Assembly (NCBI GenBank): GCA_023269695.1
Contig: JAHFPS010000001.1
Location: 44,366-108,365, forward strand
Length of the DNA stretch: 64,000 bases
Origin: Rickettsia sp.
GTDB taxonomy: Bacteria > Pseudomonadota > Alphaproteobacteria > Rickettsiales > Rickettsiaceae
Reading direction: 5' to 3'
This document shows, in pieces, positions 746 through 62,973 of the stretch. The notes below the pieces were generated by a model. It ran no database searches. It was not told the DNA's origin and saw nothing but the letters and a program-made list of their open reading frames with translations. Made by a program: the position numbers and the translations under genes. Position 1 is the first letter of the stretch, and each line of letters opens with the position of its first letter.

Positions 746-1759
746 ATGACAACTCCACAGAATTTTATTTATAAATTATCAGATTATTTGCAAAAAAACA
801 ATGCATTGCAAAAAATCATCAATAAATTCCAAACAGATTACTCGCTAATACCTTGCATTGGAGTGGAAATAGAATTTTATTTAAGCAAAAATATTGACCC
901 ACTCAAATTGCAAACTCTGCTTGGTATATTAGTTAAGAAAGAAAAAGGCGATAATCAATTTGAGATAGATTTGCCACCTTCTACTAACATAATTGAGTAT
1001 ATAGGAAAAATTAGTAGCACTAAGTCTAAAATACAAATTATTGCAAAAAAATTGCAGGGCAAGGTAAATTTTTCTGCCAAACCATTGCCAAACGGTTATG
1101 GTAGTAGTATGCATTTTCATGTAAATTTTATAGATTCTTCAAGGTCTATTAGCGAAGAGGCTGCTTTAGTAGCGACGAAGCAAAGTCCCCCCAACGTCAT
1201 TGCGAGACCACGTGAGTGTAGTGGCAATCCACATTCATTAGATTGCTTCGTTGCCGCTAAAGCGGCTCCTCGCAATGACGTTGAGACCTTGCTTCGTTCG
1301 GGCTTCACGGCTCCTCGCAATGACATTAGTTTACTACGAACAAATACTGATATGCTTGATCTAATGGGGCAGAGTATCTGCCATTATATGCTCGATAGTT
1401 TTTTGATATTTATGCCGAATGAAGATGATTACCTTCGTTTAGATAAAAATTTTATGGCACCAACTAATGTATCTTTTGGTAATAATAATAGAACTGTTGC
1501 CGTACGCATTCCTGACTCATCTCCTAGAAGAGTAGAACATAGAATAGCAAACCCACTAACCGATCCTTATTTGGCAATTTTTACTATTTTAAACTCTATA
1601 TTATTAGGTCTAGAATTTCCTGATAAAATCAATAATATCAACAAAATATATGGTAATGCTTTTGATCAACAATATCATTTAGTACCATTACCAAAATCAT
1701 TAGCAGAAGCATTAGCATTGTTTGATTTGCAGTTTTTTTTATCTAAACATTTTCTCTAA
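746..1759 (+). CDS. glnA: Glutamine synthetase catalytic-domain protein (short GlnA-like) with an in-frame repeat insertion
   Basis: GVEIEFY, NQFEI, SMHFHVN, NNRTVAVRIP and RVEHR motifs; start moved from 677 to 746 because 677 overlaps pgeF. Confidence 0.8.
   Translation: MTTPQNFIYKLSDYLQKNNALQKIINKFQTDYSLIPCIGVEIEFYLSKNIDPLKLQTLLGILVKKEKGDNQFEIDLPPSTNIIEYIGKISSTKSKIQIIAKKLQGKVNFSAKPLPNGYGSSMHFHVNFIDSSRSISEEAALVATKQSPPNVIARPRECSGNPHSLDCFVAAKAAPRNDVETLLRSGFTAPRNDISLLRTNTDMLDLMGQSICHYMLDSFLIFMPNEDDYLRLDKNFMAPTNVSFGNNNRTVAVRIPDSSPRRVEHRIANPLTDPYLAIFTILNSILLGLEFPDKINNINKIYGNAFDQQYHLVPLPKSLAEALALFDLQFFLSKHFL
1144..1324. repeat. Nested core palindromes inside glnA (inner core 1195-1280)
   Basis: GTCTATTAGCGA...[CGTCATTGCGAG...CTCGCAATGACG]...CTCGCAATGAC; the inner unit is nearly identical to 22180-22263. 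Confidence 0.9.
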
Positions 1760-2068
1760 AACTTCTAAAATTAAACATGTAGTTTCAGTGTCTAAAACTC
1801 CAAGCTTTCTTATAGCTCTAGACTTGTCTATAGTACGAATTTGATCAAGTATAATACTCCCTTCTTTACCATTAAAAACTATAGGAACACGAGTCGGGTA
1901 ACTTTTAATCTTACTTGTCATGGGTGCAACAATAAGAGTTCTTATATATTTATTCATTTCGTTAGGGGAAATAACTATACAGGGTCTTGTTTTGTTTATC
2001 TCTGATCCTTGAGAAGGATCAAGAGATACGAGTAATATATCAAACCTATAAATATCTACCATTGCCAT
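1739..2068 (-). CDS. mazF: PemK/MazF-family mRNA interferase toxin
   Basis: LDPSQGSEINKTRPCIVISP, LDQIRTIDKSR. Confidence 0.9.
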   Translation of the reverse strand: MAMVDIYRFDILLVSLDPSQGSEINKTRPCIVISPNEMNKYIRTLIVAPMTSKIKSYPTRVPIVFNGKEGSIILDQIRTIDKSRAIRKLGVLDTETTCLILEVLEKMFR

Positions 2069-2307
2069 TCTTCTTCATCCCAAGAATGTTCTATTAAATT
2101 GATATCTAACAAGTGATCATCTTCATTTTTAGACATAAGATGAAAGCTTTTTTCCCATCCTTCTCTTGCTTCTTCATAAGGTGTTATAATAAGAGCATGA
2201 TCTTTTACTGTTAAGTTCACAACATTTGTTATTTTGCATTGTTTAAGAAAGGCTTTAGGGATTCTTAAGCCCTTTGAGTTACCAATTTTGATAATTTCTG
2301 CATGCAT
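2056..2307 (-). CDS. mazE: AbrB/MazE-family antitoxin
   Basis: IIKIGNSKGLRIPK AbrB motif; directly upstream of and overlapping the toxin; ATG at 2307. Confidence 0.88.
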   Translation of the reverse strand: MHAEIIKIGNSKGLRIPKAFLKQCKITNVVNLTVKDHALIITPYEEAREGWEKSFHLMSKNEDDHLLDINLIEHSWDEEEWQW

Positions 2308-2336
2308 TTTTATTACCAATATTACTTAAAATTTAG

Positions 2337-2488
2337 TATAGCTAACCCGAATAAGTTTTTGATATCCCAGGCGTCATTGCGAGACCACGTAGTGGTCGTG
2401 GCAATCCATGCTTTTGGATTGCTTCGTCGACCTTGCGGTTCTCCTCGCAATGACGGAATCTATCTAAAACCTTCCCAGGTTAGCTATA
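2337..2488. mobile_element. Shell-A MITE (TATAGCTAACC TIR) carrying the core palindrome
   Basis: TATAGCTAACC at 2337, GGTTAGCTATA ending 2488, core inside. Confidence 0.9.
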
Positions 2489-2614
2489 CATTGTAATTAC
2501 TTTGTATACCATGTCAAGTAATTATATCTTGGATAATGCAGGAGTGCAACTATTTGACAATAGACAAGGAGAAGCAGCTACTATAGAATTACTACTAGAA
2601 ATAATGAAGAAATT

Positions 2615-3328
2615 ATGGTGTCCAAAGTTCTAAAAATTGGTAAGTGCCAAGTGCAGTTATTACCTTTATCACTTACTATATTAGCATTTGTCATCCTCTT
2701 ATCATTGGGGTTTTGGCAAATTGCTAGATTGCAGGAAAAAGAACTATTTTTAAGTTCAATGAAAAATAACCTTAATAATCCTCCTATTGATATAAAAACA
2801 CTTAGTGCAGATAAATTATATGCTAAAGTGAAAATGAAGGGGCATTTTTTGGTTGGTAAGAATTTGCATCTTTATGGACGTAAATCAATGTCCACTGAAA
2901 AAGATGGCTATTATTTAGTCAGTCCTTTTCAAACTGATGATAATAAGATAGTCTTAGTTGCATTAGGGTGGTTTGCTGCGAGGTATAAGAAAAATATTGA
3001 TGATATAGTGGATGACTCTACAGAAATTACCGGTGTAATTCTCCCTGGTGAGAAAACCAAGCTGTTTGTCTTAGATAATGATGTTAAAAACAATGTTTGG
3101 TTTACTTTAGATTTAACTCAAGCATCCAATATTCATGGTTTGACATTAGAAGATTTTTATTTAATTATGGAAGGTAACAATAATCAATCTGATATTCTTA
3201 AAAGTTTGTCGATTAAAAATCTGTTAAATGTCAGAAATGATCATTTAGAATATGCCATTACTTGGTTTGCCTTGGCAATTTCGTTAGCAGTAATTTTTGT
3301 AATTTATTATTTGCCTAAAAGAAAATAG
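2615..3328 (+). CDS. SURF1/Shy1 cytochrome oxidase assembly protein
   Basis: LGFWQIARL, HLEYAITWFALA. Confidence 0.9.
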   Translation: MVSKVLKIGKCQVQLLPLSLTILAFVILLSLGFWQIARLQEKELFLSSMKNNLNNPPIDIKTLSADKLYAKVKMKGHFLVGKNLHLYGRKSMSTEKDGYYLVSPFQTDDNKIVLVALGWFAARYKKNIDDIVDDSTEITGVILPGEKTKLFVLDNDVKNNVWFTLDLTQASNIHGLTLEDFYLIMEGNNNQSDILKSLSIKNLLNVRNDHLEYAITWFALAISLAVIFVIYYLPKRK

Positions 3329-3850: not shown

Positions 3851-3860
3851 TTTCTTACAT

Positions 3861-4068
3861 CGTCATTGCGAGAGTAAGATCCCTGCATTCGCAGGGATGA
3901 CACAAAACAGAATTGCTTCGTTGACCTACGGTCTTCTCGCAATGACGTTGACCACATACAACTTTTAAAGTGTACTATCTAAAACCGCTTCCTCTTCTAA
4001 CTTTCAACAGTTGTGGGTCTTCCTCGCAGTGACGCTAGTTTAGCTAAATGCTAATCGGGTTAGATATA
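3861..4068. repeat. Composite repeat: core, reversed shell-C arm and degenerate A end
   Basis: CGTCATTGCG at 3861; CTTCTAACTTTCAACAGTTGTG ending 4015; GGTTAGATATA ending 4068. Confidence 0.85.
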
Positions 4069-7538: not shown

Positions 7539-7607
7539 TTTGCTTCGTGGGCTTATGCCTTCTCGCAATGACGCCAGTTATTTTTCCACAACTTTTAAAC
7601 TGCCCTG
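7539..7607. repeat. Right half of a shell-B element
   Basis: TTGCTTCG...CTCGCAATGACG...ACTTTTAAACTGCCCTG. Confidence 0.8.
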
Positions 7608-9507: not shown

Positions 9508-9653
9508 CGTCATTGCGAGGAGCCGCTGTAGTAGCGACGAAGCAATTCTGTTTTCTGTCATCCCTGCGAAGGCAGGGATCTAGATTCCCGCCTACGCGGG
9601 AATGACAACTTACAATTGCTTCGTCGTAGCAATGCTACTTCCTCGCAATGACG
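9508..9653. repeat. Core palindrome with inner hairpin pair
   Basis: CGTCATTGCGAGG...GTCATCCCTGCGAAGGCAGGGATC/GATTCCCGCCTACGCGGGAATGAC...CCTCGCAATGACG. Confidence 0.9.
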
Positions 9654-12591: not shown

Positions 12592-12743
12592 TTTAAGTCG
12601 TATGTGGTCAACGTCATTGCAAGAAGACCGTAGGTCGACGAAGCAATCCATAAAAGTAACCAAAAATGGATTGCTTCGTAGGCTTGTGCCTACTCGCAAT
12701 GACGTTTGTAAATTTGACATAATGTTAGCCCTGGTTAGCTATA
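12592..12743. repeat. Core with degenerate B left arm and A right TIR, overlapping the hydrolase 3' end
   Basis: GGTTAGCTATA ends at 12743; the hydrolase stop lies inside the arm. Confidence 0.85.
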
Positions 12744-13390: not shown

Positions 13391-13557
13391 TATAACTAAC
13401 CAGGGCTAACATTACGCCAAATTGACAAATGTCATTGCGAGAAGCCACTTTAGTGGCGACGAAGCAATCCAAGATTAGAGATGGATTGCCACGACCACTA
13501 CGTGGTCTCGCAATGACACTAGTTTACTATGGCAAAATACTAATCGAGTTAGCTATA
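13391..13557. mobile_element. Shell-A MITE providing the glmU stop codon
   Basis: TATAACTAACC...GAGTTAGCTATA. Confidence 0.88.
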
Positions 13558-15981: not shown

Positions 15982-16782
15982 ATGAAAAAATTTATAATTT
16001 TATATCTTTTATTTGCTCACGACTGCCTAGCATCAGCACCTCAGGCGTGGCAAATGCTGCTGCAAACCCCAGCAAGCCCTCTTATGGAAGAGCTTCATGA
16101 GTTTCATAATTTCCTGCTACTAATATCAGGCGGAATAGTTGTCTTTATTTTCGTTTTACTAATGTATGTTTGTATTAGATTTAATGCCAAAGCCAATCCC
16201 ATTCCAGCAAAATTCTCTCATAACATATTGATTGAGGTTATTTGGACGATAATTCCTATAATAATTTTGGTTATTATTGCCATACCGTCATTCCGTATTT
16301 TACGGTTTGCAGAGAAAATCCCTGAAATAGACATGACGGTTAAAGTTGTAGGATATCAGTGGTATTGGCACTATATCTACCCTGATCATGATAATATTGA
16401 ATTTGATAGTTATTTAATTACTGATGAAAACTTAAAAGCTGGTCAAAAGAGATTATTAGAAGTTGATAACCGTATTATCATACCAGAAAATACTACCGTA
16501 AAATTTTTAATTACCGCAGGAGATGTCATCCATAGTTTTGCAGTACCAGCATTAGGTATAAAGATCGATGCGGTTCCTGGGAGAATCAACGAAACCTGGA
16601 CTAAAATTAGCAAGAAAGGTGTATATTACGGTCAGTGTTCAGAGCTTTGTGGTGTTAATCATGCTTTTATGCCGATTGCCATTGAAGTGGTAAGCAAGGA
16701 AGAATTCCAAAATTGGCTGATTGCAACAAAAACAAAATTTTCTATGAAAATAAAGACAAACATCATTGCGAGGAGACCATGA
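15982..16782 (+). CDS. coxB: Cytochrome c oxidase subunit II
   Basis: GYQWYW, DVIHSF, GQCSELCGVNHAFM CuA motif. Confidence 0.97.
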   Translation: MKKFIILYLLFAHDCLASAPQAWQMLLQTPASPLMEELHEFHNFLLLISGGIVVFIFVLLMYVCIRFNAKANPIPAKFSHNILIEVIWTIIPIIILVIIAIPSFRILRFAEKIPEIDMTVKVVGYQWYWHYIYPDHDNIEFDSYLITDENLKAGQKRLLEVDNRIIIPENTTVKFLITAGDVIHSFAVPALGIKIDAVPGRINETWTKISKKGVYYGQCSELCGVNHAFMPIAIEVVSKEEFQNWLIATKTKFSMKIKTNIIARRP

Positions 16783-16923
16783 GGTCGACGAAGCAATTGT
16801 AAGTTGTCATTCCCGCGGCTCTGATGTCATTCCCGCGTAGGCGGGAATCTAGATCCCTGCATTCGCAGGGATGACATTGATATTGAGCAGGTATCTAGAT
16901 TCCCGCCGCAGCTAGGAATGACA
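16761..16923. repeat. Truncated core with multiple inner hairpins, overlapping the coxB 3' end
   Basis: CATCATTGCGAGGAGACC... followed by several GTCATTCCCGC/GGGAATGACA units. Confidence 0.85.
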
Positions 16924-17053
16924 AGTTACAATCTCCTAGTCAAGTTAACTATAAATATTTTTTTAAGTTAAATTAAATGAAAAGCTTAGTGCTAGGTATT
17001 TTTAGTATATACTCAAAATAAAAATTAATATTAACTAAATAAACGAGACCCCT

Positions 17054-17665: not shown

Positions 17666-17702
17666 TAAAATGTAAAAAATGTTATTCTAGTGGCTCCCTT
17701 AA

Positions 17703-17828
17703 TGTCATTCCTGCGTAGGCGGGAATCTAGATACCTGCTTTCGCAGGGATGACACAAAAATGGATTGCTTCGTTGCCACTAAAGTGGTTCCTCGCAATGA
17801 CGGAGTAATGCTAACCAGGTTAGCTATA
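17703..17828. repeat. Right half core with A right TIR
   Basis: TGTCATTCCTGCG...CCTCGCAATGACG...GGTTAGCTATA. Confidence 0.85.
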
Positions 17829-20326: not shown

Positions 20327-20430
20327 TATAGCTAACCCGAATAAGTTCTTCCTTTTTGTGTCATCCCTGTGAAAGTAGAGGATCTAGATTCCCGCCTACG
20401 CGGGAATGACAATAGGGTGCGGGAATGACA
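20327..20430. repeat. A left TIR with inner hairpin units, truncated
   Basis: TATAGCTAACCCGA...GATTCCCGCCTACGCGGGAATGACA. Confidence 0.8.
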
Positions 20431-20548
20431 CCTTTTTCGTTTAAATATAATAGATGTTGTATTTCTAGACTTTTGACGGAACGATTAACTATAATTACTT
20501 GGTAATGCTGGTTTTAATAGGAATATAAAATAAAGAAAACTAAAAATT

Positions 20549-22120
20549 ATGTCATCATTTGTTTCACAAAAATATAAGAATATAGGTATAGTTGGTTTGG
20601 GTAAGACTGGTATGGCTGCTTATCAATCATTAAATAAAGTAGCTAGGATAATTTGTTATGATCAAGTAAGTAGCAGTAGGGATGCTTTCAGTAAAATCTA
20701 TGGAAACGATAATTTGGTTAGCTTATCTGATCGGCGGTGGCAGGAGCTTGATAAGATACTACTGAGTCCAGGCGTTTCCTTGTCGCATGATATTGTTACA
20801 ATGGCTAATTCCCGTAATATACCAATAACCTCAGATATAGACCTATTATTTGAGGAGGTTAAGTTCAGAGGGGGCAATAAAGCTAATTTCATTGGTATAA
20901 CTGGTACTAATGGTAAGAGTACTACCACAGCTTTAACCGGTCATATTTTACAATTTTGTAATTTTGATTACCTAGTTGGCGGAAATATTGGTTTTCCTGC
21001 TTTAAGTATGGGATTAGATTGTCAAGGATATGTATTAGAGCTATCTTCATTTCAGTTAGACTTATTAAGCAGTTTTAAAGCTAAAATTGCTGTGCTTCTT
21101 AATATTACCGAAGATCATTTAGATCGACATAATAATATACAAGGCTATATTGCCGCTAAAAAGAAAATCTTTGATCGAATGGATAAAGATTCATTTGCTA
21201 TAATTAGTGTTGATGATGAAATTACCAACAATATCTTCCTAGAATTAGAAAATGAAAATAAAACAAATATAGTACCAATCTCTGTTGGTAAAATCCTTGA
21301 TAAAGGAGTGTCAATTTGTAATAATGTTGTTTATGACAATATTTTTGAACCGATTACTATTAATCTCCATAATAATAGTTCTTTACAAGGCATACATAAT
21401 CAAGAAAACATTGCCGCTAGTTATGCAGCTTGTCGGATTATAGGGGTAAGACCAGAACAAATAATTGCTGCCATCGAGTTGTTTAAGGGGTTGCCGCACA
21501 GGATGCAATATGTTGGAGCAATATACTCAGATCATTCGAATATAGCTAATCCGATTAGCATTACGCCAAATTCACAGACGTCATTGCGAGGAGCCACTTT
21601 AGCGGCGACGAAGCAATCCAGAAAAGTGATTAGAAATGGATTGCTTCGTTCGGGCTTCGCACCTCCTTGCAATGACGCCAGTTTACTATGGCTAAATGCT
21701 AGTAAGGTTAGCTATATGATAAATTTTTATAATGATAGTAAGGCTACCAATGGCATTGCTGCTTCTAAATCCATTGCAGCACTTGATAATATATATTGGT
21801 TAGCTGGAGGGGTGGCAAAAGAAGGGGGAATAACAAATTTAGAGCCATGGTTTGATAAAATTCGTAAGGCTTATCTTTTCGGTCAAGATAAAGAACTTTT
21901 TGCATCGTCACTTAAGGGCAGGGTAGATTTCCAAATTTGTCATGATTTACAGGAGGCTTTTAATGCTGCCGTTAGGGACGCAATGCAGGATATAGGGGAT
22001 ATAAAAAATATCTTGCTAGCTCCGGCTTGTGCCTCTTACGATCAATTTAAAAATTTTGAAGAACGTGGAAATCTATTTATAGAATTATATAATATTATTG
22101 CTAATCATGATCAAAGATAA
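20549..22120 (+). CDS. murD: UDP-MurNAc-L-Ala:D-Glu ligase with a 58-aa in-frame insertion
   Basis: ITGTNGKSTTT, ELSSFQL, LNITEDHLDRH, GLPHR, NDSKATN, LAPACASYDQF. Confidence 0.96.
   Translation: MSSFVSQKYKNIGIVGLGKTGMAAYQSLNKVARIICYDQVSSSRDAFSKIYGNDNLVSLSDRRWQELDKILLSPGVSLSHDIVTMANSRNIPITSDIDLLFEEVKFRGGNKANFIGITGTNGKSTTTALTGHILQFCNFDYLVGGNIGFPALSMGLDCQGYVLELSSFQLDLLSSFKAKIAVLLNITEDHLDRHNNIQGYIAAKKKIFDRMDKDSFAIISVDDEITNNIFLELENENKTNIVPISVGKILDKGVSICNNVVYDNIFEPITINLHNNSSLQGIHNQENIAASYAACRIIGVRPEQIIAAIELFKGLPHRMQYVGAIYSDHSNIANPISITPNSQTSLRGATLAATKQSRKVIRNGLLRSGFAPPCNDASLLWLNASKVSYMINFYNDSKATNGIAASKSIAALDNIYWLAGGVAKEGGITNLEPWFDKIRKAYLFGQDKELFASSLKGRVDFQICHDLQEAFNAAVRDAMQDIGDIKNILLAPACASYDQFKNFEERGNLFIELYNIIANHDQR
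21541..21716. mobile_element. Shell-A MITE in frame within murD
   Basis: TATAGCTAATC...GGTTAGCTATA; 176 bp including both TA, net 174 bp. Confidence 0.93.
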
Positions 22121-22132: not shown

Positions 22133-22290
22133 ATTCACCTTACGCATGGCATTTAAAAATTGCAAAAAAGTACAAGATGTCATTGCGAGACCACGTGAGT
22201 GTAGTGGCAATCCACATTCATTAGATTGCTTCGTCGCCACCAAAGTGGCTCTTCGCAATGACGCCAGGCTGTGTTATGCGTAAGGTGAGT
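22133..22290. mobile_element. Shell-G element at the murD/ftsW junction
   Basis: ATTCACCTTACGCAT...ATGCGTAAGGTGAGT TIR; AATGA direct repeats at 22128-22132 and 22291-22295; core inside. Confidence 0.88.
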
Positions 22291-24723: not shown

Positions 24724-25398
24724 ATGTTAAAAAAAATTATTATTATAGTTTTGGGATTATCCTTACTTTCGGGTTGTACTGATGGTTTTAGAGGATATTT
24801 CAAAAGATCTGCTAATAATAAAATTATAGACAGCAAAGGTTTTGCTGGTGGCAAGCGTCCACCGCTTTATAATAAAAAATATATAGCGACGGCAAAAAGA
24901 AACGTCATGGAAGAAAATTTTGATTATGATGATGGCGATTTGCTTAGTGAATATGACACTGAAACAATCAACCCAACTTTAAGAAATCGTCAGATGTATA
25001 TTAAGATGGTAAAACAAGATTCGGAACATATTGAAAGGCGAAAGCTAAATCAAGAAAAAGAATATCCTTCATTGAACTCAGCAAATGATAAGGTGAAGAG
25101 ACAAAATAATGGTAAGGCAGATAGTGATTTGCACAAAGAGCTAGAGCAGATTAAATCTATGCTGCGTGAAACTAAGAAAGATTTAGAAAAATATAAATGT
25201 CCTGCACGACAAAATACTAACCAACAAACTGTTGATAAAGTGTTACCAAGTAAACATAAGACAGATAGTCGTAAAAAAATTAATGGGGTAGAAACTAACA
25301 AAAATAATAAAACTAAGAATGTACTCGGTAAGTCAGAGATGCAAAGAAAATTTCTTAGTGAGGATTATGATATAAAGGCAACTGGTGCTAATAAGTAA
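24724..25398 (+). CDS. Hypothetical lipoprotein
   Basis: Lipobox LSGC after a hydrophobic N-terminus. Confidence 0.75.
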   Translation: MLKKIIIIVLGLSLLSGCTDGFRGYFKRSANNKIIDSKGFAGGKRPPLYNKKYIATAKRNVMEENFDYDDGDLLSEYDTETINPTLRNRQMYIKMVKQDSEHIERRKLNQEKEYPSLNSANDKVKRQNNGKADSDLHKELEQIKSMLRETKKDLEKYKCPARQNTNQQTVDKVLPSKHKTDSRKKINGVETNKNNKTKNVLGKSEMQRKFLSEDYDIKATGANK

Positions 25399-25424
25399 AT
25401 TACCTTACACAGAAAGGTATAAGA

Positions 25425-38662: not shown

Positions 38663-38683
38663 TTTTTTCCTCAATTACTCTGT

Positions 38684-38827
38684 AGACTTCCTGGATAAGC
38701 CAATCTAGTTGGTGATTTTGTCGTCGAAACTCGCCTCCGCTCCTCACGTACGTTTATGTACGCTGCGGTACTCGGCTTCGTTTCTCCTAAAAATCTCTCA
38801 ACTATCTTTGACTTATCCAGGAAGTCT
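38684..38827. mobile_element. 144-bp RPE-like element (variant subfamily)
   Basis: AGACTTCCTGGATAAG...CTTATCCAGGAAGTCT; TGT on both sides. Confidence 0.88.
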
Positions 38828-39856: not shown

Positions 39857-40034
39857 TATAGCTAATCCGAGTAACATTACTCTGTCATTGCAAGGAGTAC
39901 ACAAGTTCCAGGCGTCATTGCGAGGAGCAACTTTAGTGGCGACGAAGCAATCCAAAAAAGTAATCAGAAATGGATTGCTTCGTCGGCTCACGCCTCCTCG
40001 CAATGACGGAATAATGTTAGTTGGGTTAGCTATA
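39857..40034. mobile_element. Shell-A MITE
   Basis: TATAGCTAATC...GGTTAGCTATA. Confidence 0.9.
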
Positions 40035-40047: not shown

Positions 40048-41352
40048 TTAATGTCTTGTCCTAAGTTGCTCTGCTTTGCTCAATGCTTCTTCTGCTTGCG
40101 AGTTTTTACCTAATTTTTTCAAGGCAACACCTTTGTTATAGTAAGCTCTAGCATCATCAGGCTTATATTTGATTGTCAAATCAAATAATGTAATTGCCTC
40201 CTGGTATTTGCCTAATTTACCTAAAGTCATACCTTTGTTATAGTAAGCTTTAGCAAAATCAGGCTTATATTTGATTGCCAAATCATAGGCTATAATTTCT
40301 TCTGGGTGTTTACCTAACTTATCTAAAGCTATACCTTTACTATAGTAAGCATTAGCGAAATCAGGCTTATATTTAATTGCCAAATCATAGGCTATAATTG
40401 CATCCTGCCATTTATCTAATTTATCCAAAGCAACACCTTTGTTATAGTAAGCTTCAGCAAGATCGGGCTTATATTTGATTGCTAAATCATAGAAGTTAAT
40501 TGCCTTATGCCATTTGCCTAATTTACACAAAGTTGTACCTTTGTTATGGTAAGCTATAGCAAAATCAGGCTTATATTTAATTGCTAAATCATAGCAGTCA
40601 ATTGCATCCTGCCATTTATCTAACTCATCCAAAGTAGTACCTTTATTATAATAAGCATCAGTATAATCAAACTTATATTTAATCGCCAAATCATAGGCTA
40701 TAATTGCCTCATGCAATTTGCCTAATTTGCCTAAATCAACACCTTTGTTATAGTAAGCTTTAGCATAGTCAAACTTATATTTAATTGCCAAATCATAAGA
40801 GTCAATTGCTTCTTGATATTTGTTTAATTTTTCTAAAGCAATAGCTTTGTTATAGTAAGCTTCAGCAAGATCAGGCTTATATTTAATTGCTAAATCATAG
40901 GAGTTAATTGCCTCATGCAATTTATCTAACTTATATAAATTGTTACCTTTGTTGGTGTAAGCTTTGGCATGATCAGGCTTATATTTAATTGCTAAATTAT
41001 TTAGTATAATTGCCTCTTGCCATTTGCCTAACTTACTTAAAACCTCACCTTTGTTATAGTAAGCATCGGCAAAATCAGGCTTATATTTGATTGCTAAATC
41101 ATAAGAGTCAATTGCATCCTGCCATTTATCTAACTTATCCAAAGCAGCACCTTTATTATTGTAAGCTTCAGCAAGATCAGGATTATATTTGATTGCCAAA
41201 TCATAGAAGTCAATTGCTTCTTGCCATTTGCCATACATTGCTAAAATATTCGCTTTCTCAAAATATTGTTGAGCATCGGCAATCACTTTGCTAAAGGGGA
41301 GTAATATTAAAGTAAGTAAAATTATTAGTTGTTTTATGTTAATTATTTTCAT
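40048..41352 (-). CDS. Signal-peptide TPR repeat protein (about 12 x 34 aa)
   Basis: Tandem AYYNKG..L.KLGK..EAI..YDLAIKYKPD units. Confidence 0.92.
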   Translation of the reverse strand: MKIINIKQLIILLTLILLPFSKVIADAQQYFEKANILAMYGKWQEAIDFYDLAIKYNPDLAEAYNNKGAALDKLDKWQDAIDSYDLAIKYKPDFADAYYNKGEVLSKLGKWQEAIILNNLAIKYKPDHAKAYTNKGNNLYKLDKLHEAINSYDLAIKYKPDLAEAYYNKAIALEKLNKYQEAIDSYDLAIKYKFDYAKAYYNKGVDLGKLGKLHEAIIAYDLAIKYKFDYTDAYYNKGTTLDELDKWQDAIDCYDLAIKYKPDFAIAYHNKGTTLCKLGKWHKAINFYDLAIKYKPDLAEAYYNKGVALDKLDKWQDAIIAYDLAIKYKPDFANAYYSKGIALDKLGKHPEEIIAYDLAIKYKPDFAKAYYNKGMTLGKLGKYQEAITLFDLTIKYKPDDARAYYNKGVALKKLGKNSQAEEALSKAEQLRTRH

Positions 41353-44186: not shown

Positions 44187-44335
44187 AAATATTGAGTATG
44201 TACTCGAATGATTTGAAGAATTGGAACGTAAAACGAGGGGTGAGCGAACGGAGCGTAGTAAATCTACGTGAGTACGCGAATGCCCCGAAATTTTACGGAG
44301 CCAATTCTTCAAAGCAGAAGAGTATATTTCTATGA
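44183..44335 (+). CDS. Candidate 50-aa repeat-derived bridging ORF
   Basis: Manual translation [14 protein letters not shown]...KQKSIFL*; ATGA overlaps with the lipB stop and the next start. Confidence 0.35.
44199..44326. mobile_element. About 128-bp TA-flanked RPE-like element
   Basis: TGTACTCGAATGATTTGAAGAATTGG...CCAATTCTTCAAAGCAGAAGAGTATA. Confidence 0.85.
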
Positions 44336-45669: not shown

Positions 45670-45971
45670 TATAGCTAAACCCGACTAATACCAATTAGTG
45701 TTAATAAATAGAGTTATAGAACTAACCCATCAATGTTCTAGATATCCCAGACGTCATTGCGAGGAGCTACTTTAGTGGTGACGAAGCAATTGTCAGTTGT
45801 CATTCCCGCGTAGGCGGGAATCTAGATCCCTGCTTTCGCAGGGATGACACAAAAATGGATTGCTTCGTCGGCTCACGCCTCCTCGCAATGACGGAGTAAT
45901 ACTAGTCGGGTTAGTCATCCATACATGACAAGTGGTCGCGGGAATGACAAAGGATTGCTGTGGAAATGACA
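45670..45971. repeat. Composite A arms, core and hairpin units between convergent genes
   Basis: TATAGCTAAAC at 45670; core at about 45752-45893; GGGAATGACA. Confidence 0.8.
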
Positions 45972-49295: not shown

Positions 49296-49366
49296 GGATT
49301 GTTTCGTCGGTCTTATGACCTCCTCGCAATGATATCAGTTATTTCTATGACTTTTAAACTGCCTTG
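49296..49366. repeat. Right half of a shell-B element
   Basis: GGATTGTTTCG...CCTCGCAATGA...GACTTTTAAACTGCCTTG. Confidence 0.75.
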
Positions 49367-50364: not shown

Positions 50365-50559
50365 TATAGCTAATCAGATTAGCATTACGCCAAATTCACA
50401 GACGTCATGGCGAGGAAGACCGTAGGTCGACGAAGCAATCCTGTTTTGTGTCATCCCTGCTTCAGTGCGGGAATGACAACTTACAATTGCTTCGTCAGCT
50501 CATGCCTCCTCGCAATGACGCCAGTTTACTATGGCTAAATGCTAATCTGGTTAGCTATA
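50365..50559. mobile_element. Shell-A MITE with arms nearly identical to the murD insert
   Basis: TATAGCTAATCAGATTAGCATTACGCCAAATTCACAGA...GGTTAGCTATA. Confidence 0.92.
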
Positions 50560-51647: not shown

Positions 51648-52044
51648 AAAATATAATATTGCAAAGCTATTTACTATACTTTTTGTGGATGATGAACCAA
51701 TTTGCCATGATGCAATAAATTTAGTGCTACGTCATGAACAAGAATATAAAATTATCAATGCTTATACTGGGCAAGAGGCAGTTGATTTATCTAAAAAATA
51801 TGCTAATAACATAGATCTAATATTTCTTGATATTTCTCTTCCTGATATGACAGGTTGTAAAGTACATAAACAGATAAGAAGCAATAAAAATCTTGCTCAT
51901 ATTCCTATAATTTTTCAAAGTGGTTTGTCTAACGATCATCAAGAGATAAAAGGACTATTACAAGGACAAGCAACATACATAATCCGTAAACCTTATAAAA
52001 ATGAAGAATTGCTTAAAGCTATCAGGCAGTTCCATTACCTATAG
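51640..52044 (+). CDS. Single-domain response regulator
   Basis: VDDE, IFLDISLPDMTG, IRKP. Confidence 0.92.
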   Translation: MPKKYNIAKLFTILFVDDEPICHDAINLVLRHEQEYKIINAYTGQEAVDLSKKYANNIDLIFLDISLPDMTGCKVHKQIRSNKNLAHIPIIFQSGLSNDHQEIKGLLQGQATYIIRKPYKNEELLKAIRQFHYL

Positions 52045-52376
52045 CTAACCCGAGAAGGTTTTAGCCATAGTAAAGGTGATGTTATTGCGAGGGGGCGTAG
52101 GCCGCACAACTGTCGAAAGTTAGAAGGGGAGGGGGTTTTAGGCAAGGTAGTTTAAAAGTCGTATGTGACCAACGTCATTGCGAGACCACGAAGTGGCATG
52201 GCGATCCACATTCATTAGATTGCTTCGTCGCCAAAATGGCTCCTCGCAATGATGCCAGGCTGTTTTCTCTATGACTTTTAAATGCCATGCGTAAGGTGAG
52301 TGATTAAGATCCTGAAACAAGTTCAGGATAACACATTTGGGTTTTAACCATTCTTTACGACTTTTAAACTGCCATG
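52040..52376. repeat. Composite A/C/B/G repeat cluster between convergent genes
   Basis: A TIR at 52040; C left at 52105; core at about 52173; G right end 52287-52301; B-type end 52359-52376 inside fmt. Confidence 0.85.
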
Positions 52377-55490: not shown

Positions 55491-55765
55491 TATAGCATTT
55501 CTGTCATTAGACCTCCTTCGAAACTCGCTTGTGCTGAGGGATTTGAAGGAGGCTCGGAACGGAGAACCGCATCGTACTTAAATGTACGTGAGGATTCGAG
55601 TACCGAATCGACGTACAAATCACCAGCAGAAGTAGAGTTTCGAAAGAGGTCTATTGTGAGAAGACTGTAGGTCGACGAAGTAATCCAAGAGCATGGATTG
55701 CCACGACCACTACTTGTTCTCGCAATGACGAAGATGTTATCTAGAACCTTAACGGGTTAACTATA
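55491..55765. repeat. Degenerate A element whose core is interrupted by an RPE-1-like copy
   Basis: TATAGC...GGTTAACTATA. Confidence 0.8.
55509..55652. mobile_element. 144-bp RPE-1-like element
   Basis: AGACCTC...GAGGTCT with ATT on both sides. Confidence 0.9.
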
Positions 55766-55788: not shown

Positions 55789-56020
55789 CAGGGCAGTTTA
55801 AAAGTCACAACTAATGATATAAGATACTAGGTTATAGAAACGAATAGCTGTCATCGCGAGCCACGAAGTGGCGTGGCGATCCAAATAAACAGCTTGTTAT
55901 TTTTGCTGCTGCAATTTTTGGATTGCCACGTTGCCGCTTTGCGACTCCTCGCAATGACGGTTATTCACCTAAGTAAAACCGATCTTTTCTACTATTAATT
56001 GCGACTTTTAAATCGCCCTG
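55789..56020. mobile_element. Shell-B MITE with 9-bp TSD
   Basis: CAGGGCAG...TCGCCCTG; GTAAAATAC at 55780-55788 and 56021-56029. Confidence 0.92.
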
Positions 56021-58746: not shown

Positions 58747-59052
58747 TATAGCTAACTCGACTAACATTTAGCCATAGTAAACTGGCTTCTATTAGCGAGG
58801 AGCAACTTATAGTGGCGACGAAGCAATCCTGTTTTGTGTCATACCTGCGAAAGCAGGTATCTAGGAGACTGTCGGAAATAACTAAAGTAATTCTATATTT
58901 GGCTCTTTTTGGCTGCTAATAAACAGGATTTTCTTGAAATAGGTACACTATTCCTTCAAAAATCCTATTTATTCTCGCCTAAAAATAGCTCAAAATATAA
59001 TTAATTAGTTATCTCCGACAGACTCCTAGATTCCCGCCTACGCGGGAATGAC
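58747..59052. repeat. A left TIR and core whose inner hairpin pair hosts element F
   Basis: TATAGCTAACTC at 58747; ...GGTATC TA [F] TA GATTCCCG... Confidence 0.85.
58864..59026. mobile_element. Element F (163 bp, TA/CTAG target)
   Basis: GGAGACTGTCGGAAATAACTA...TAGTTATCTCCGACAGACTCC. Confidence 0.88.
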
Positions 59053-59056
59053 AATT

Positions 59057-59261
59057 TATAGCTAACCAGAATAAGTTCTAGATATTCCAGGCGTCATTGC
59101 GAGGAGCCACTTTAGTGGCGCGACGCGGCAATCCTGTTTTGTGTCATACCTGCGAAAGCAGGTATCTAGATTCCCGCCTACGCGGGAATGACAACTTACA
59201 ATTGCTTCGTCGTGCTTACACACTCCTCGCAATGACGGAGTAATGCTAATCGGGTTAGCTA
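59057..59261. mobile_element. Shell-A MITE
   Basis: TATAGCTAACC...GGTTAGCTA. Confidence 0.9.
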
Positions 59262-59612: not shown

Positions 59613-59633
59613 AATCTTCTGTCTTTGTTTCTA

Positions 59634-59792
59634 GGCTCTGTGAAGGTTTCTAAAGTGACCTAATTTTGGCTATTTTTTGCTGCGAATAAACATGATTTTT
59701 TTGAAATAGGTACACTATTCCTTCAAAAATCCTATTTATTCTCGCTAAAAAATAGCTCAAAATATAGAACAATTAGAAACCTTCACAGAGCC
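59634..59792. mobile_element. Element E (159 bp, TA-flanked)
   Basis: GGCTCTGTGAAGGTTTCTAA...TTAGAAACCTTCACAGAGCC, perfect 20-bp TIR. Confidence 0.9.
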
Positions 59793-59804
59793 TAAGATGG
59801 TCAA

Positions 59805-59979
59805 TGTAGCTAACCCGATTAGTATTTATCCACGCAAACTGGCGTCATTGCGAGGAGGTGCGAAGCCCGAACGAAGCAATCCATTTCTAATCACCTTTCT
59901 GGATTGCTTCGTCGCTACTAAAGTAGCTCCTCGCAATGACGTCCGTGAATTTGGCGTAATGTTATTCGGGTTAGCTATA
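59805..59979. mobile_element. Shell-A MITE
   Basis: TGTAGCTAACCCGA...GGGTTAGCTATA. Confidence 0.9.
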
Positions 59980-59987
59980 ACTTCTCC

Positions 59988-60942: not shown

Positions 60943-61073
60943 TATACGCGAATGCTTTAAAGAATTGGCTCCTGCAAATACTTGTGGGGTATTCGCGTGT
61001 TCACGTACTAGTTGTACGCTCCGCTCGCTCATCCCTTGTTTTACGTCCCAATTCTTCAGATCATTCGCGTATA
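60943..61073. mobile_element. 131-bp TA-flanked RPE-like element
   Basis: TATACGCGAATG...CATTCGCGTATA perfect 12-bp TIR; same family as 44199. Confidence 0.88.
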
Positions 61074-61456
61074 CTACAATAAGATCGTTATTACTAGCTT
61101 TTTCTATTATAGCAAATTTTTGATTTTGAATATCTTGCAGGTCAGTGGAGATTGTTAAATAAGCAAAGTTTATCATTAAATTTATCATTATTTTTTAGTT
61201 GTTCTTAAATAAACTATAATTCTAATTCAACCCTAAGTGGCTGAACTAAAAATAATCAAGTATAAATACTACAGTATAGTTAGTTTAAACAATCATTTCA
61301 TTGTAGACGTTTGTTATAATTTTTGCAATCACGTTAGTTGTAATTTTATTAAAATTTAGTATAGACAATTGTAGATTATTGTTATAATCATAAATAATGA
61401 CGTAAGGATCTTGTATAAATTAGCCATATTTAATGAATTATTAAAAGATTGGCATG

Positions 61457-61968
61457 TATATTCAAATGATTTGAAGAATTGTTTTTTGAAAATATCAGGG
61501 ACTTGCATACTCACGTACCACAGCTGTCGAAAGTTAGAAGAGGAAATGGTTCTAGAGGTCATCATGGCAGTTTAAAAGTTGTAAAAAAATAACTGGCGTC
61601 ATTGCGAGGAGGCATGAGCCGCACAGCTGTCGAAAGTTAGAAGGGGAATCGGTTTTAGGCAAGGTACTTTATAAAGTCGTATGTGGTCAACGTCATTGCG
61701 AGGAAGACCGTAGGTCGACGAAGCAATTGTAAGATGTCATTCCCGCGTAGGCGGGAATCTAGCTCCCTGCTTTCGCAGGGATGACAGAAAAATGGATTGC
61801 TTCGTCGGCTCATGCCTTCTCGCAATGACGCCAGTTATTTTTCCGCAACTTTTAAACTGCCATGATGACCTCTAAACCCGCTCTACCTTCTAACTTTCGA
61901 CAGCTGTAACTAAAGTAGCTCCTCGCAATGACATAGAGGCTATCTAGAACATTGACGGGTTAGCTGTA
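61457..61968. repeat. Multi-layer nest (RPE half, C, B, core, C, B, core, A end)
   Basis: C left ends at 61519 and 61622; C right end at 61908; A-like end at about 61968. Confidence 0.85.
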
Positions 61969-61973
61969 TAACT

Positions 61974-62633
61974 CTATTTATTAACAATTGGTATTAACTC
62001 CTCTACTGATTGTTCACGTATTGCCTGCAAGTTATTTTGACAATTATGCCAAAGGTTTTTGATTTCTTGCTCGTAAGCAATCAACTCAAGCATAGTCCAA
62101 TTAAACTGTTCAAAAAGTTTATATGTGCTATTTATTCCTCTACAAATAGCATCTATATTAAACAACTTTGTAGAAAATAATTCTTCTATCCTTGCTTCTT
62201 GTGCTTTTTTATATTCATCGTGATTAGCGATACCAAATTCTGCTACATCATGCATCTGACTGGTCCGTACCTGTATTTCCACATTACGTCTAGGAGTACC
62301 AACGGCAGCTACGATATGCAGAGAGCTATAACCATTATCCTTAGGATTAACAATATAATCTTTATATTTCTCAAGGTTATTATGGTATAAATCATTAATA
62401 ATATCCAATACTGTGTAACAGTCTTCTTGCTTGTCAACTATAATTCTAAAAGCAACTAGGTCAGTTAATTGGTGAAAATCAATATTTTTTCTTATCAGCT
62501 TCTTTAAGATAGAATAAGGATCTTTTAATCTGTAGGATATCTTCTCTACTATAGATCTTTCATGTAACTTAGCACTAATAGTACCTGCTATCTTGTGTAA
62601 ATTATCAATATCTTTATATAACATAAACTTCAT
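61974..62633 (-). CDS. Small RelA/SpoT (p)ppGpp synthetase-domain protein
   Basis: YRLKDPYS, DLVAFRII, KDY..NPKDNGYSSLH, VEIQVRT; no HD domain. Confidence 0.88.
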   Translation of the reverse strand: MKFMLYKDIDNLHKIAGTISAKLHERSIVEKISYRLKDPYSILKKLIRKNIDFHQLTDLVAFRIIVDKQEDCYTVLDIINDLYHNNLEKYKDYIVNPKDNGYSSLHIVAAVGTPRRNVEIQVRTSQMHDVAEFGIANHDEYKKAQEARIEELFSTKLFNIDAICRGINSTYKLFEQFNWTMLELIAYEQEIKNLWHNCQNNLQAIREQSVEELIPIVNK

Positions 62634-62666
62634 ATTGTTACTTTAACTATTTTGGCTATTATTATA

Positions 62667-62825
62667 CAGGGCGATTTAAAAGTCACAACTAATGATATAA
62701 AATACTAGGTTATAGAAACGAATAGCCGTCATCGCGTACCGCTTTGCAGCTCCTCGCAATGACGGTTATTCACCTAAGTAAAATCGATCTTTTTCTACTA
62801 TTAATTATGACTTTTAAACTGCCCT
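62667..62825. mobile_element. Shell-B MITE, internally deleted sibling of 55789
   Basis: CAGGGCGATTTAAAAG...CTTTTAAACTGCCCT; ATTATTATA at 62658-62666 and 62826-62834. Confidence 0.88.
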
Positions 62826-62973
62826 ATTATTATATCTTACGAATATTAATAAAAACTACGGTTCCCTGTCAATAGTTAAATTATTTTTTTATAAATAAGA
62901 GTTTTTGAATGATATAATGTATCGAATAACTGTTATTTTTATTGAAGTACAATCATCGCTTGTTGTGTAATAC

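Follow-up and report, generated by a model that had tools for sequence, protein, structure and literature searches.

The repeats of this Candidatus Tisiphia chromosome are most probably the product of two kinds of small selfish DNA, palindromic elements of the RPE (Rickettsia palindromic element) type and MITEs, that have become entangled with one another. The first kind would be an old RPE-type core that makes no duplication of its own, and the second would comprise true MITEs that depend in trans on DDE transposases whose genes lie elsewhere. One and the same core is mobilized by at least two transposition systems, one in shell A, which duplicates TA, and one in shell B, which duplicates 9 bp. 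A new finding is that the ends of shell B match the 24-nt inverted repeats of an ISAs1-family element that is multicopy in sister Tisiphia.

The chromosome and its repeats

The 64,000-nt stretch of DNA analyzed here (the window) comes from a Candidatus Tisiphia (Torix-group Rickettsia) symbiont and is ordinary housekeeping chromosome. By sequence comparison, its IF2 is 91-94% identical to that of Tisiphia and Torix-group genomes, and the ORFs scanned with Pfam are all either housekeeping or without a Pfam match. No transposase gene was found among these ORFs in the window, as the initial annotation had stated. About 39 repeat loci, close to the 38 or so first reported, extend from 1144 to 62826 and cover about 10% of the window. 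From the ORF list, the repeats roughly amount to half of the non-coding DNA, and many copies sit just beyond gene ends. The loci are as follows; L002, L003, L004, L010, L213 and L214 are sister loci.

1144-1325, degenerate outer core with the variant end GTCTATTAGCGAA, holding a complete inner core (1195-1280) in its central loop; both in frame within a glnA-like ORF (677-1759)
2337-2488, A-shell element of arm subtype A-iv, flanked by TA; core 2372-2455
3861-4068, left-truncated nest: core, C arm (3994-4015), outer-core right end, A right arm
7540-7607, right half-core and B right arm, terminus ...ACTGCCCTG
9508-9653, bare long core of 146 nt whose loop holds an hpY/hpX double hairpin; neither shell nor duplication
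12595-12743, hybrid of a truncated c-type arm, a core (12612-12704) and an A-i right arm
13391-13557, complete A-shell element; core 13430-13518
16761-16953, long core with hpX/hpY duplicated, overlapping the coxB 3' end; A-like terminus
17696-17828, hpX/hpY, right half-core and short A arm (A-iii)
20327-20434, A-iv left arm fused to hpY/hpX hairpins, without a core end
21541-21716, complete A-shell element in frame in murD (+58 codons); TA duplication; absent in L010
22135-22288, G-shell element, ends TCACCTTACGCAT...; core 22178-22263; 9-bp duplication ATAATGAAT/GTAATGAAT; absent in L010
24533-24692, A-shell element; the L010 ortholog has the same left arm and flanks, its interior and right arm being replaced
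25397-25599, long core (25425-25571) between a G-left remnant and an A right arm; in L010 the ortholog has another left half-unit, loop insert and right arm
27221-27491, two-core composite between A ends; second core with the variant right end CTAGCTAATAGAC
32593-32757, B-shell miniature transposon; core 32627-32714; 9-bp duplication CAAAATTTA; absent in L010
32950-33017, solitary hpX/hpY double hairpin
34625-34768, H element, ends AGACTTCCTGCAAAA, without core; 3-bp duplication ATT; absent in L010, L003 and L004, a 269-bp version in L002
35389-35648, hybrid with a B-type left end, two cores and a right end within an A-type arm; perfect 9-bp duplication TTATAATGG; absent in L010, L003 and L002
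37299-37661, bare outer core, its second side hairpin interrupted by a C-shell element (37398-37636) with its own core (37466-37558) and the 10-bp duplication ACTTTAGTGG
38683-38827, H-family element, ends AGACTTCCTGGATAAG; 3-bp duplication TGT
39857-40034, A-shell element with an extra core-end fragment and a core (39913-40008); three tandem bare cores at this site in L002
43223-43460, fragments: A left arm, J-type end, right core end, partial G/B right arm
44190-44316, K repeat, like the interior of the long H element; inverted second copy at 60953-61081
45670-45915, A-type element, long core (45752-45893) with hpX/hpY
49296-49366, right half-core and B right arm
50365-50559, complete A-shell element; core 50403-50520, with hairpin types that are elsewhere characteristic of the C family
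52040-52299, nest: A left arm, core end, C left arm (from 52105), core (52173-52254), full G right arm; a solitary B end lies nearby (52360-52376)
55509-55765, H element (55509-55652, duplication ATT) in a 12-nt core end, reading GTCATT-H-ATTGTGAG; an A-iv right arm comes after the core
55789-56020, B2 element; 9-bp duplication GTAAAATAC; right end TTGCGACTTTTAAATCGCCCTG identical to the Tisiphia ISAs1-family inverted repeat
58747-59056, A-type element, variant in its core end; a J element (58865-59024, ends GAGACTGTCGGAAATAACTAA, duplication CTAG) interrupts the loop
59057-59263, A-shell element with a long core (59092-59237), inserted at a TA of element 58747-59056
59632-59794, palindromic element, the second of the J family, at a CTAG site; missing from L213 and L214
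59805-59979, complete A-shell element; absent in L213 and L214, which carry an H-family element 2 bp away instead
61519-61968, deep nest: on the left, C outer arm, B arm, core end, second C left arm and long core (61691-61830); on the right, B arm, C outer arm, right core end and A right arm
62667-62826, B2 element with its core partly deleted; 8-9-bp duplication (A)TTATTATA; left end CAGGGCGATTTAAAAGTC identical to the repeat of the ISAs1-family element

The palindromic core

The core is bounded by 12-nt ends (CGTCATTGCGAG) and contains a central stem, GAAGCAATCC/GGATTGCTTC, and a pair of variable side hairpins. With at most one mismatch, the core end has 56 matches in the window, compared to 0.09 expected, which bears out the common core first described, and GAAGCAATC has 28 (0.58 expected). 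At up to two mismatches 61 core ends are found, and 22 cores, 82-147 nt long, are complete. Single-strand folds have z-scores of -9 to -11, and the modeled core can adopt either a four-way junction or one long hairpin. Of the five pairs in the type-1 side hairpin, three are changed on both sides; such compensatory-looking changes could come from copying within palindromes, without selection. The core has no match in Rfam at gathering thresholds, and ORFs crossing the elements show no excess over shuffled sequence.

The core is a classical, and old, RPE-type palindromic element. The same architecture is present in true Rickettsia, namely R. kotlanii and a Rickettsia of Halotydeus, and a core within a core is also seen in that set; the system had initially been considered more organized than the classical RPE, whereas its core is of the same type. 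Bare cores show neither a duplication nor a target, and they occur in frame within genes and within other cores. In shelled copies the palindromy of the arms runs to the edge of the core (AAAATAACTGG-core-CCAGTTATTTT). The motif CCAGTT beside the core is common to the A and B arms, and the whole element is one long palindrome.

A shell arm directly adjoins about 72% of the core ends (44 of 61), suggesting that most core copies here have spread by riding inside shells. A arms are found on 26 core ends, B, c or G arms on 15 and B2 arms on 3, about 16 being bare. The hairpin types are scattered over the shells, the association being only weak (permutation p = 0.035). There is little linkage between core type and shell, in support of the initial interpretation.

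Shells and their target duplications

Shell A ends in TATAGCTAACCnGATTAG... and ...GGTTAGCTATA and duplicates TA. At murD, the L010 locus has a single TA and is shorter by 174 bp, or 58 codons; the element at 59805 has CAA[TA]ACTTC as its ancestral site. Shell B (CAGGGCAGTTTAAAAGT) duplicates 9 bp, as seen at 32593, where L010 has the empty site, and at 55789; the duplication at 62667 is 8-9 bp. Shell C (CACAGCTGTCGAAAGTTAGAAG) duplicates 10 bp, at 37398 and again in the sister locus L214 (CCCTTGTGTC), and shell G (TCACCTTACGCATGGCA) duplicates 9 bp at a site that is empty in L010. The coreless families H and J, which would be separate from the others, duplicate 3 bp and CTAG, respectively. 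Duplication length is constant within each shell, and empty sites with exact duplications were observed directly in sister Tisiphia genomes for A, B, G, H and a B/A hybrid. Judged by the empty sites and by duplications specific to each shell, the shells are genuine mobile units. The lengths first proposed for A, B and C hold, in part through these clean empty sites; for G, a range of 5-9 bp had been given, of which only the value of 9 stands.

The terminal repeats of the four shells had been described as unrelated. This does not apply to B, C and G, because the same arm, TTTAAAAGT, is found in all three; with this arm and their 9-10-bp duplications they look like one ISAs1-related lineage, in which C and G would be longer-ended relatives of B, moved by putative DDE transposases. 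The ends of A and B show no similarity. B-type arms do lie inside C and G, as first noticed (GGCAGTTTAAAAGT has 15 matches in the window, compared to 1.05 expected). They are flanked by inverted and not by direct repeats, so simple nested insertion fails to explain the C and G layers. Moreover, three of the window's four C copies have a junction in common that lacks a duplication, meaning that the composite was copied or recombined, not re-inserted. In one other Tisiphia, the B arms enclose another hairpin as their cargo; shell and cargo are therefore separable.

An ISAs1-family partner for shell B

The Tisiphia of Ditula carries six copies of a 1453-bp insertion sequence with ends CAGGGCGATTTAAAAGTCGCAACT, five of them with 9-bp duplications. 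NCBI names the encoded protein an ISAs1 family transposase; it contains the Pfam domains DDE_Tnp_1_assoc and DDE_Tnp_1, and has relatives at least 90% identical in other Tisiphia. An ISAs1-family element on the metagenome contig L188 encodes a transposase that is 54% identical to it and scores 160 bits on NCBIfam NF033564 (cut-off 70); the perfect 24-nt inverted ends of that element, TCCCAGGGCAGTTTAAAAGTCCTG, are B-type from CAGGG inward, over 21 nt. For the CACGGCTGTC-ended element in L188, the relatives retrieved came from Legionellales and Gammaproteobacteria rather than Tisiphia.

The B2 ends in the window match the ends of the 1453-bp element at 23/24 and 25/26 positions, and the similarity of B elements to the insertion sequence stops after about 24-30 nt. 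On this match, shell B appears to be a derivative of the Tisiphia ISAs1-family insertion sequence and would be mobilized by its transposase. The early attribution of CAGGG ends with 8-10-bp duplications to ISAs1 is thus backed by a partner element for B, whereas the search for autonomous elements gave none for A, C, G, H or J. Shell A would be moved by a TA-duplicating enzyme that may be IS630-like: the basis of the IS630 assignment made at the outset is the TA duplication, and no partner element came to light. None of the six insertion-sequence copies read contains a core, nor is there any core in the 42 kb analyzed of the Ditula Tisiphia genome, which carries the insertion sequence.

Recombination and nesting

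Segment replacement was seen directly at orthologous sites: in L010, the orthologous A and G/A elements have kept their flanks while their interiors are replaced. Between L213 and L214, which are 99% identical, there is a 207-bp indel whose borders are the direct repeat GACGCTTGGTGA that two neighboring elements provide; a block including a C element with its 10-bp duplication also distinguishes the two loci. The swapped interiors, together with this recombination-type indel, indicate that modules are shuffled by inter-copy recombination. The mosaic thus owes much to this process, which we infer from two orthologous mosaics and one indel to be the main shuffling force. Recombination or gene conversion, aided by the conserved segments that copies share, would swap half-cores and arms and give rise to hybrids. 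The hybrid at 35389-35648 has a 9-bp duplication yet lacks a B right end.

The insertions into cores first reported are real. H interrupts a core end (55509), J a loop (58865) and C a side hairpin (37398); C is inserted in an hpX hairpin in L214, central loops host hpX/hpY double hairpins, and one core lies within another (1195-1280). Such nested events number about 8 among about 33. Since repeats make up about half of the non-coding DNA, this much nesting is expected from tolerance alone, and the landing-pad role proposed for the core is not required. Insertions would accumulate in older copies as the safest landing places.

Origin of the composite elements

It had been proposed that one cargo palindrome was captured several times independently by ISAs1, IS630 and other ends, the cores being a preferred landing pad. 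The same core in TA- and 9-10-bp-duplicating shells, the ISAs1 link of B, the B arms around other cargo and the insertions within cores all speak for this, but the arm common to B, C and G leaves at most two or three independent core-bearing shells, no IS630 element was found, the C junction common to three copies lacks a duplication, interiors swapped at orthologous sites point to exchange after insertion, and the nesting needs no targeting. Repeated capture would be one of several routes, beside the shuffling of modules by recombination; as the whole account it is rather doubtful. The reverse order of events, in which RPE cores invaded full-length insertion sequences or older MITEs that were later internally deleted to short shells, is about equally tentative. 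Bare cores in genes and in other cores, the coreless MITEs H and J, and internally deleted elements (the G arm at 22264, the A element at 7678-7751 of L213, B2 at 62667) would suit it; against it, the insertion-sequence copies read are free of cores, no insertion signature is seen at shell-core junctions, the arms are palindromic up to the core, and no core-less A shell was seen.

A role of the core fold for the cell, as an RNA stability element, terminator or protein-binding site, with mobility secondary, would account for its great stability, the compensatory changes in the side hairpin and the many copies just beyond gene ends. It is nonetheless unlikely, as sister species differ in which copies they carry at sites that are conserved in other respects, truncation or interruption affects many copies, the Rfam and ORF searches gave nothing above threshold or shuffled sequence, and hairpin-preserving changes can arise by copying within the palindrome. 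Descent from one composite ancestor, the shells being only its diverged ends, is very improbable: the long palindrome and the shared CCAGTT fit it, but duplications of 2, 9 and 10 bp need different cutting geometries, A and B ends are dissimilar, B ends match an ISAs1-family element, and hairpin types are scattered over the shells. The entanglement of RPE-type cores with MITEs is the reading that we favor, and the presence of ISAs1-family ends on a core-bearing shell offers a concrete route by which RPE-type repeats may spread.

The RPE-type cores (RPE, Rickettsia palindromic element) of the window are enclosed in MITEs of insertion-sequence origin, and one of their shells has a named partner of the ISAs1 family; this is what is new here. 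The initial annotation, drawn up from the sequence alone, had proposed that one core was captured by the shells of several transposase families and served as a landing pad. Its observation is borne out; its interpretation (captures, landing pad, IS630) holds in part only.

Host and gene content

The GC content of the window is about 33%. Identity of its IF2 protein reaches 91-94% with Candidatus Tisiphia and Torix-group Rickettsia, but no more than 65-72% with other Rickettsiaceae. A NusA protein identical to that of the window is contained in the ENA metagenome assembly ERZ27297570 and in a Logan assembly of SRR14366766. Each ORF scanned against Pfam was either a housekeeping gene (nuoABC, glyA, coxB, murD-ftsW-murG, rimP-nusA-infB-rbfA, ruvAB, dnaN, recR, fmt-def, purC, dut, recF) or had no Pfam match. 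No transposase was found among these ORFs, and none of 12 transposases, taken from loci of Tisiphia and others, had a significant tblastn match in the window; both results confirm the earlier statement that it contains none.

A self-similar block at 40102-41245 was considered as a mobile element and rejected, since it belongs to a TPR-repeat gene:

40048-41352 (-): TPR gene, 434 aa, about 11 TPR repeats; the 1.1-kb self-similar block

The ortholog of this protein in L002, a sister Tisiphia locus, is shorter (307 aa, 59% identity), showing that the number of TPR repeats differs between species.

The palindromic core

Comparison of the window with itself revealed 52 repeated stretches totalling 7.8 kb, 1.1 kb of which is the TPR-repeat gene. 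An independent listing arrived at about 39 repeat loci, near the 38 counted initially. The motif CGTCATTGCGAG, with at most one mismatch, occurs 56 times in the window against 0.09 expected, and GAAGCAATC 28 times against 0.58 expected. Altogether, 61 core ends and 22 complete cores (82-147 nt) were recognized. The layout is constant: a 12-nt end, a side hairpin, the central stem GAAGCAATCC, a loop, GGATTGCTTC, a second side hairpin and a 12-nt end. A half-unit thus consists of an end, a hairpin and half of the stem, with about eight discrete hairpin types, including GCCAC-TTTA-GTGGC, GACC-GTAG-GTC, GGC-RTGA-GCC and ACCAC-GTAG-TGGT. In the commonest type, three of the five pairs are changed on both sides, 92% of cells are paired, and at most 2 of 500 shuffles are as good. 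The z-scores of single-strand folds of the cores lie between -9 and -11; a four-way junction is predicted for one copy, and the loop of long cores is occupied by a double hairpin, hpX/hpY. An Rfam scan of the window at gathering thresholds gave no match.

The same core architecture is present in R. kotlanii and in a Rickettsia of Halotydeus, where a core within a core is also seen. This occurrence in true Rickettsia, together with the ATGAC palindrome, argues that the core, typed here by its architecture, is a classical RPE-type element and no novelty of Tisiphia. Some copies lie in frame within genes: murD is 58 codons longer than in the sister locus L010 with its frame kept, and a glnA-like ORF (677-1759) stays open through nested cores. 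No excess of stop-free frames was detected in the elements. Bare cores have neither a duplication nor a common target.

A second core subfamily is recognizable by its variant core end, GTCTATTAGCGAG, which has four copies in the window versus 1.0 expected by chance:

1144-1156: variant core end (sequence match)
27452-27464: variant core end (sequence match)
35618-35630: variant core end (sequence match)
58787-58799: variant core end (sequence match)

In two-core composites its neighbour is mostly an A right arm, and it is also present in L002, L004 and L213, three sister loci.

The shells are miniature transposons

The shells, outer inverted repeats around the cores (A, B, C and G), are true miniature transposons. 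The elements are 144-302 bp long and multicopy, with no transposase gene in the window, and each family has its own duplication: TA for A, 9 bp for B and for G, 10 bp for C, and, for the core-less families, 3 bp for H and CTAG for J. Empty sites were sought in sister loci retrieved via IF2 and RecF. Clean ones were found for two A, two B, one G and one H element; support for shell C comes from duplications and from one presence difference between close genomes.

Elements with their duplications and empty sites in sister Tisiphia loci (L004, L010, L213, L214)
A element in murD: single TA in L010, which is 174 bp (58 codons) shorter; MurD frame intact
A element, 59805: ancestral CAA[TA]ACTTC in L213 and L214; these sisters carry an H element 2 bp away instead
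B element, 32593: duplication CAAAATTTA; empty in L010
B element in L004: duplication CATTACAAT
B2 elements (a subtype of B), window 55789 and 62667, L010 5454: agreeing duplications
G element, 22135: 9-bp duplication; empty in L010
C elements: window 37398, duplication ACTTTAGTGG; L214 17412, duplication CCCTTGTGTC
H element, 34625: duplication ATT; empty in three sisters
H elements, window 55509 and 38683, L213 8750: agreeing duplications
J element, 58865: duplication CTAG
Hybrid, 35389: duplication TTATAATGG; empty in three sisters

The duplication sizes read initially are upheld by the empty sites and the further duplications, that of G being narrowed from 5-9 bp to 9 bp. The hybrid (35389-35648), which has a B-type left end, two cores and a right end inside an A-type arm, shows a 9-bp duplication despite the absence of a B right end. 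Two candidates were discarded: 58749-59254 as a clean empty site in L213-L215, where a 47-nt remnant is present, and L213 7678-7751 as a core-less A shell, which is an element with an internal deletion.

Shell B and its ISAs1-family partner

A metagenome scan with the B end gave 120 matches, mostly chance singles; the informative ones were two loci, L188 and L189. On the 2.7-kb contig L188, two transposase genes form a unit that has the B end, as an inverted pair, on either side; both genes are of the ISAs1 family (418 and 160 bits on NCBIfam NF033564, cut-off 70). The outer element is bounded by perfect inverted repeats of 24 nt, TCCCAGGGCAGTTTAAAAGTCCTG, the B-type portion of which is CAGGGCAGTTTAAAAGTCCTG. 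Its transposase is 54% identical to a protein named by NCBI as ISAs1 family transposase in the Tisiphia endosymbiont of Ditula angustiorana. The chromosome of this endosymbiont carries six identical copies of a 1453-bp element with 24-nt repeat ends, CAGGGCGATTTAAAAGTCGCAACT, and 9-bp duplications at five of the six. The B2 ends of the window match the ends of this element at 23 of 24 and 25 of 26 positions; related elements have the ends CAGGGCAATTTAAAAGTCG in common, and proteins at least 90% identical to its transposase are found in several Tisiphia. The likeness between B elements and the 1453-bp element ends after 24-30 nt, meaning that what they have in common is the ends recognized by the transposase, and nothing else. 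The comparison supports shell B being an ISAs1-derived MITE, whose partner element can be named from sister genomes. The earlier attribution of CAGGG ends with 8-10-bp duplications to ISAs1 is supported for B by the ends and 9-bp duplications of the 1453-bp element.

In 42 kb of the Ditula Tisiphia genome, which is rich in insertion sequences, no core was found, and B arms lie beside hpX-type hairpins. A second ISAs1-family element lies inside the B-ended one on L188 (1415-2646), with ends CACGGCTGTCCCATTAAAA and the 10-bp duplication GCACTGTACA. The relatives of its transposase belong to the Legionellales and Gammaproteobacteria, which suggests that insertion sequences may be exchanged among intracellular bacteria.

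Kinship of the shells

The 61 core ends carry A arms in 26 cases, arms with the TTTAAAAGT motif in 15 and B2 arms in 3, about 16 being bare or nested. The TTTAAAAGT-motif arms are those of B, the inner arms of C, and those of G. The ends of C and G are CACAGCTGTCGAAAG and TCACCTTACGCAT, respectively: C is a B-type arm beneath a further 44 nt of palindromic end, and G a B-type arm beneath a further 10-19 nt. The repeats flanking the B arms within C and G are inverted, not direct, and the duplications of B, C and G are all 9-10 bp. From their sequences, these three shells are best read as one ISAs1-related lineage. The shells had been described as independent; this stands for A, set apart by its TA duplication, but not for B, C and G, which have one arm type in common.

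The C end and the inner element of L188 have in common CAC[A/G]GCTGTC and the 10-bp duplication, and nothing more. A search with the second L188 transposase for a Tisiphia partner of shell C found relatives in Legionellales and Gammaproteobacteria only, and no autonomous ISAs1-family candidate with G ends was found. Shell A ends in TAGCTAACC. Seven of the nine A copies with paired ends have TA on both sides, while the other two have one altered terminus (59805, TG; 59263, TC). The Tisiphia loci covered, which amount to about 300 kb and sample each genome to a small extent, showed neither A-type ends flanking a transposase nor an IS630-type gene. The idea that A was mobilized by IS630 therefore keeps the TA duplicated at two sister-empty sites in its favour but has no IS630 partner in these loci. 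Likewise, the proposed search for insertion sequences with the termini of the shells succeeded for B, with an ISAs1-family element, but not for A or C in the Tisiphia loci and relatives searched.

Mosaic structure and nesting

Hairpin types are distributed across the arm classes of the shells: with bare and nested ends excluded, type 1 is joined to six of these classes, type 2 to three and type 3 to four. The association between hairpin type and shell is weak (p = 0.035), and the C family, which is coherent, accounts for most of it. Two orthologous elements have internal segments swapped between the window and L010, within flanks that are about 93% identical:

24533: interior and right arm replaced relative to L010
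25397: differs from L010 in the left half-unit, the insert of the loop and the right arm

The sister loci L213 and L214, which are 99% identical, differ by a 207-bp indel bounded by a direct repeat, GACGCTTGGTGA, of two adjacent elements, and by a block with a C element. The replaced segments and this indel indicate that recombination between copies reshuffles the modules on short time scales, which weakens the inference of a separate capture for each combination. The core does sit in shells with TA and with 9-10-bp duplications, as repeated capture would have it, but recombination is another route to such combinations.

Nesting takes several forms: a C element has entered a core hairpin, an H element a core end and a J element a loop; one A element lies in another's loop, and one core lies within another. 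Insertions into cores are therefore real, as the landing-pad proposal had it. However, repeats make up about half of the non-coding DNA of the window (estimated from the ORF list) and insertions into genes would mostly be lost, so that neither targeting nor a dedicated landing-pad function is needed.

Two local hot spots were noticed. B-type insertions at 35380-35400 in the window and at 2060-2245 in L004 occurred independently, 2 bp apart in different lineages, with duplications TTATAATGG and CATTACAAT; at 59630-59980, A and J in the window and H in L213/L214 are no more than about 20 bp apart. Two sister loci (L003:2348-3289, L010:20832-21788) contain genes of the YhgA-like 'Transposase_31' type (Pfam E about 1e-56), with none in the window. 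We take this family to include the Rpn recombination-promoting nucleases.

Other repeat families

The core-less families and a solitary hairpin are located as follows:

Window 34625-34768, 38683-38827, 55509-55652; L002 7333-7602; L213 8750-8893: H-family MITEs
Window 58865-59024, 59632-59794: J-family palindromic elements, ends GAGACTGTCGGAAATAACTAA / GCTCTGTGAAGGTTTCTAA, target CTAG
Window 32950-33017, 20350-20434, long-core loops; loci L006, L007, L011: hpX

H elements have ends AGACYTCY..., no RPE core and 3-bp duplications (ATT, TGT, AAT); they are 144 bp long, with a 269-bp long form in L002. The CTAG target of J is reminiscent of IS5-type targets, and no partner element for J was found among the loci examined. 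The hpX hairpin, GTCATTCCCGCGTAGGCGGGAATC, is found by itself and in the loops of cores, and also in R. kotlanii and further Rickettsiaceae metagenome-assembled genomes. When a 479-bp nest was compared with a plasmid database, no Rickettsia plasmid matched; the two short matches obtained (31-41 nt, 93-97% identity) were both to hpX, on Sphingobium and Legionella plasmids. From this distribution, hpX appears to be a REP-like hairpin of very wide occurrence. At L213 11090-11530, RPE cores are surrounded by a further shell type, with ends CTAGTACTACAGTTGTAGATTGAATGTGAGTGTTCACG, which was not seen in the window.

Comparison with known systems

Since 2000, RPEs have been recognized as selfish palindromes able to invade even protein genes; they were reportedly described by Ogata et al. 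in 2000 and 2002, in families RPE-1 to RPE-10. Like them, the window cores are found both between genes and in frame within genes (murD and the glnA-like gene). They also resemble RPEs in size (about 85-150 bp), in their Rickettsiaceae host and in their 12-bp terminal inverted repeat (PMC2229807); in a review table, the RPE is given a 12-bp terminal repeat and a duplication marked unknown (PMC2229807). The ATGAC palindrome is likewise a reported feature of RPE-4, -6 and -7 (PMC3767692). RPEs are 100-150-bp palindromes with lineage-specific bursts, reaching 728 copies in R. felis and 526 in R. bellii (PMC1166351, PMC1458961, PMC1779305), and the density in the window, about 0.5 per kb, compares with that of R. 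felis, 728 per 1.49 Mb (PMC1166351). For a Torix genome, one RPE insertion is on record (PMC5656822). Unlike RPEs, most window cores lie within outer inverted repeats with defined duplications and empty sites, and the A, B, C and G shells are absent from the true-Rickettsia loci examined. No RPE-moving transposase is named in the RPE literature covered here, and a full-text search found no paper joining ISAs1, MITE and Rickettsia.

B ends resemble the ISAs1 family in their CAGGG start, their 9-bp duplication and their match to the 24-nt repeats of the 1453-bp element. They differ from ISAs1-family insertion sequences and the MITEs derived from them in that the terminal 24-30 nt are all that is in common and an RPE core, instead of leftover transposase-gene sequence, occupies the middle; C and G, moreover, hold a B arm internally, under 10-44 nt of extra palindromic end. 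With its long inverted ends, TA duplication and hairpin-forming body, shell A is akin to Correia/NEMIS, RUP and ERIC (PMC2229807), among which RUP offers the best evidence for MITE ends functioning in transposition (PMC2229807). The link is one of duplication type only, no IS630-type or other partner having been found.

BIMEs (REP units with variable linkers) are likewise built from a few hairpin half-units and linker or arm motifs in many arrangements, the half-units of the window acting as an exchangeable module. REP/BIME elements are associated with tyrosine transposases of the RAYT type and are not known to make duplications. A RAYT gene was not seen here, and the window shells, unlike BIMEs, behave as DDE-type MITEs. 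The resemblance concerns organization, not membership.

Spread of RPE-type palindromes

We know of no means of spread that has been identified for RPE-type palindromes. One reading, which we hold to be rather unlikely when its two halves are taken jointly, is that Tisiphia RPEs spread mainly inside transposase-driven chimeric MITEs and that the core is itself a MITE-making module. In this scheme, B, C and G would be driven by ISAs1 transposases, and A by an enzyme specific for TA. The route, put forward just as tentatively, might be recombination via the common core, or mirror-copying of an adjacent insertion-sequence end across the symmetry axis. If true, a MITE-making core would account for the arms being palindromic up to the core, and for the B arms in C and G having inverted instead of direct flanks. 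For a single-end (mirror) origin of both B2 arms, the likeness beyond nt 24 is no better than in shuffles.

Most RPE-type cores of the window belong to units whose ends are defined, whose duplications are of fixed size and whose empty sites are clean, one shell being tied to a specific ISAs1-family element. The shells make RPE movement experimentally testable, and the complete genomes of Tisiphia, now many, allow insertions and events of gene conversion to be dated. The repeats of the window offer a tractable case of small repeats recombining into mosaics in reduced symbiont genomes.
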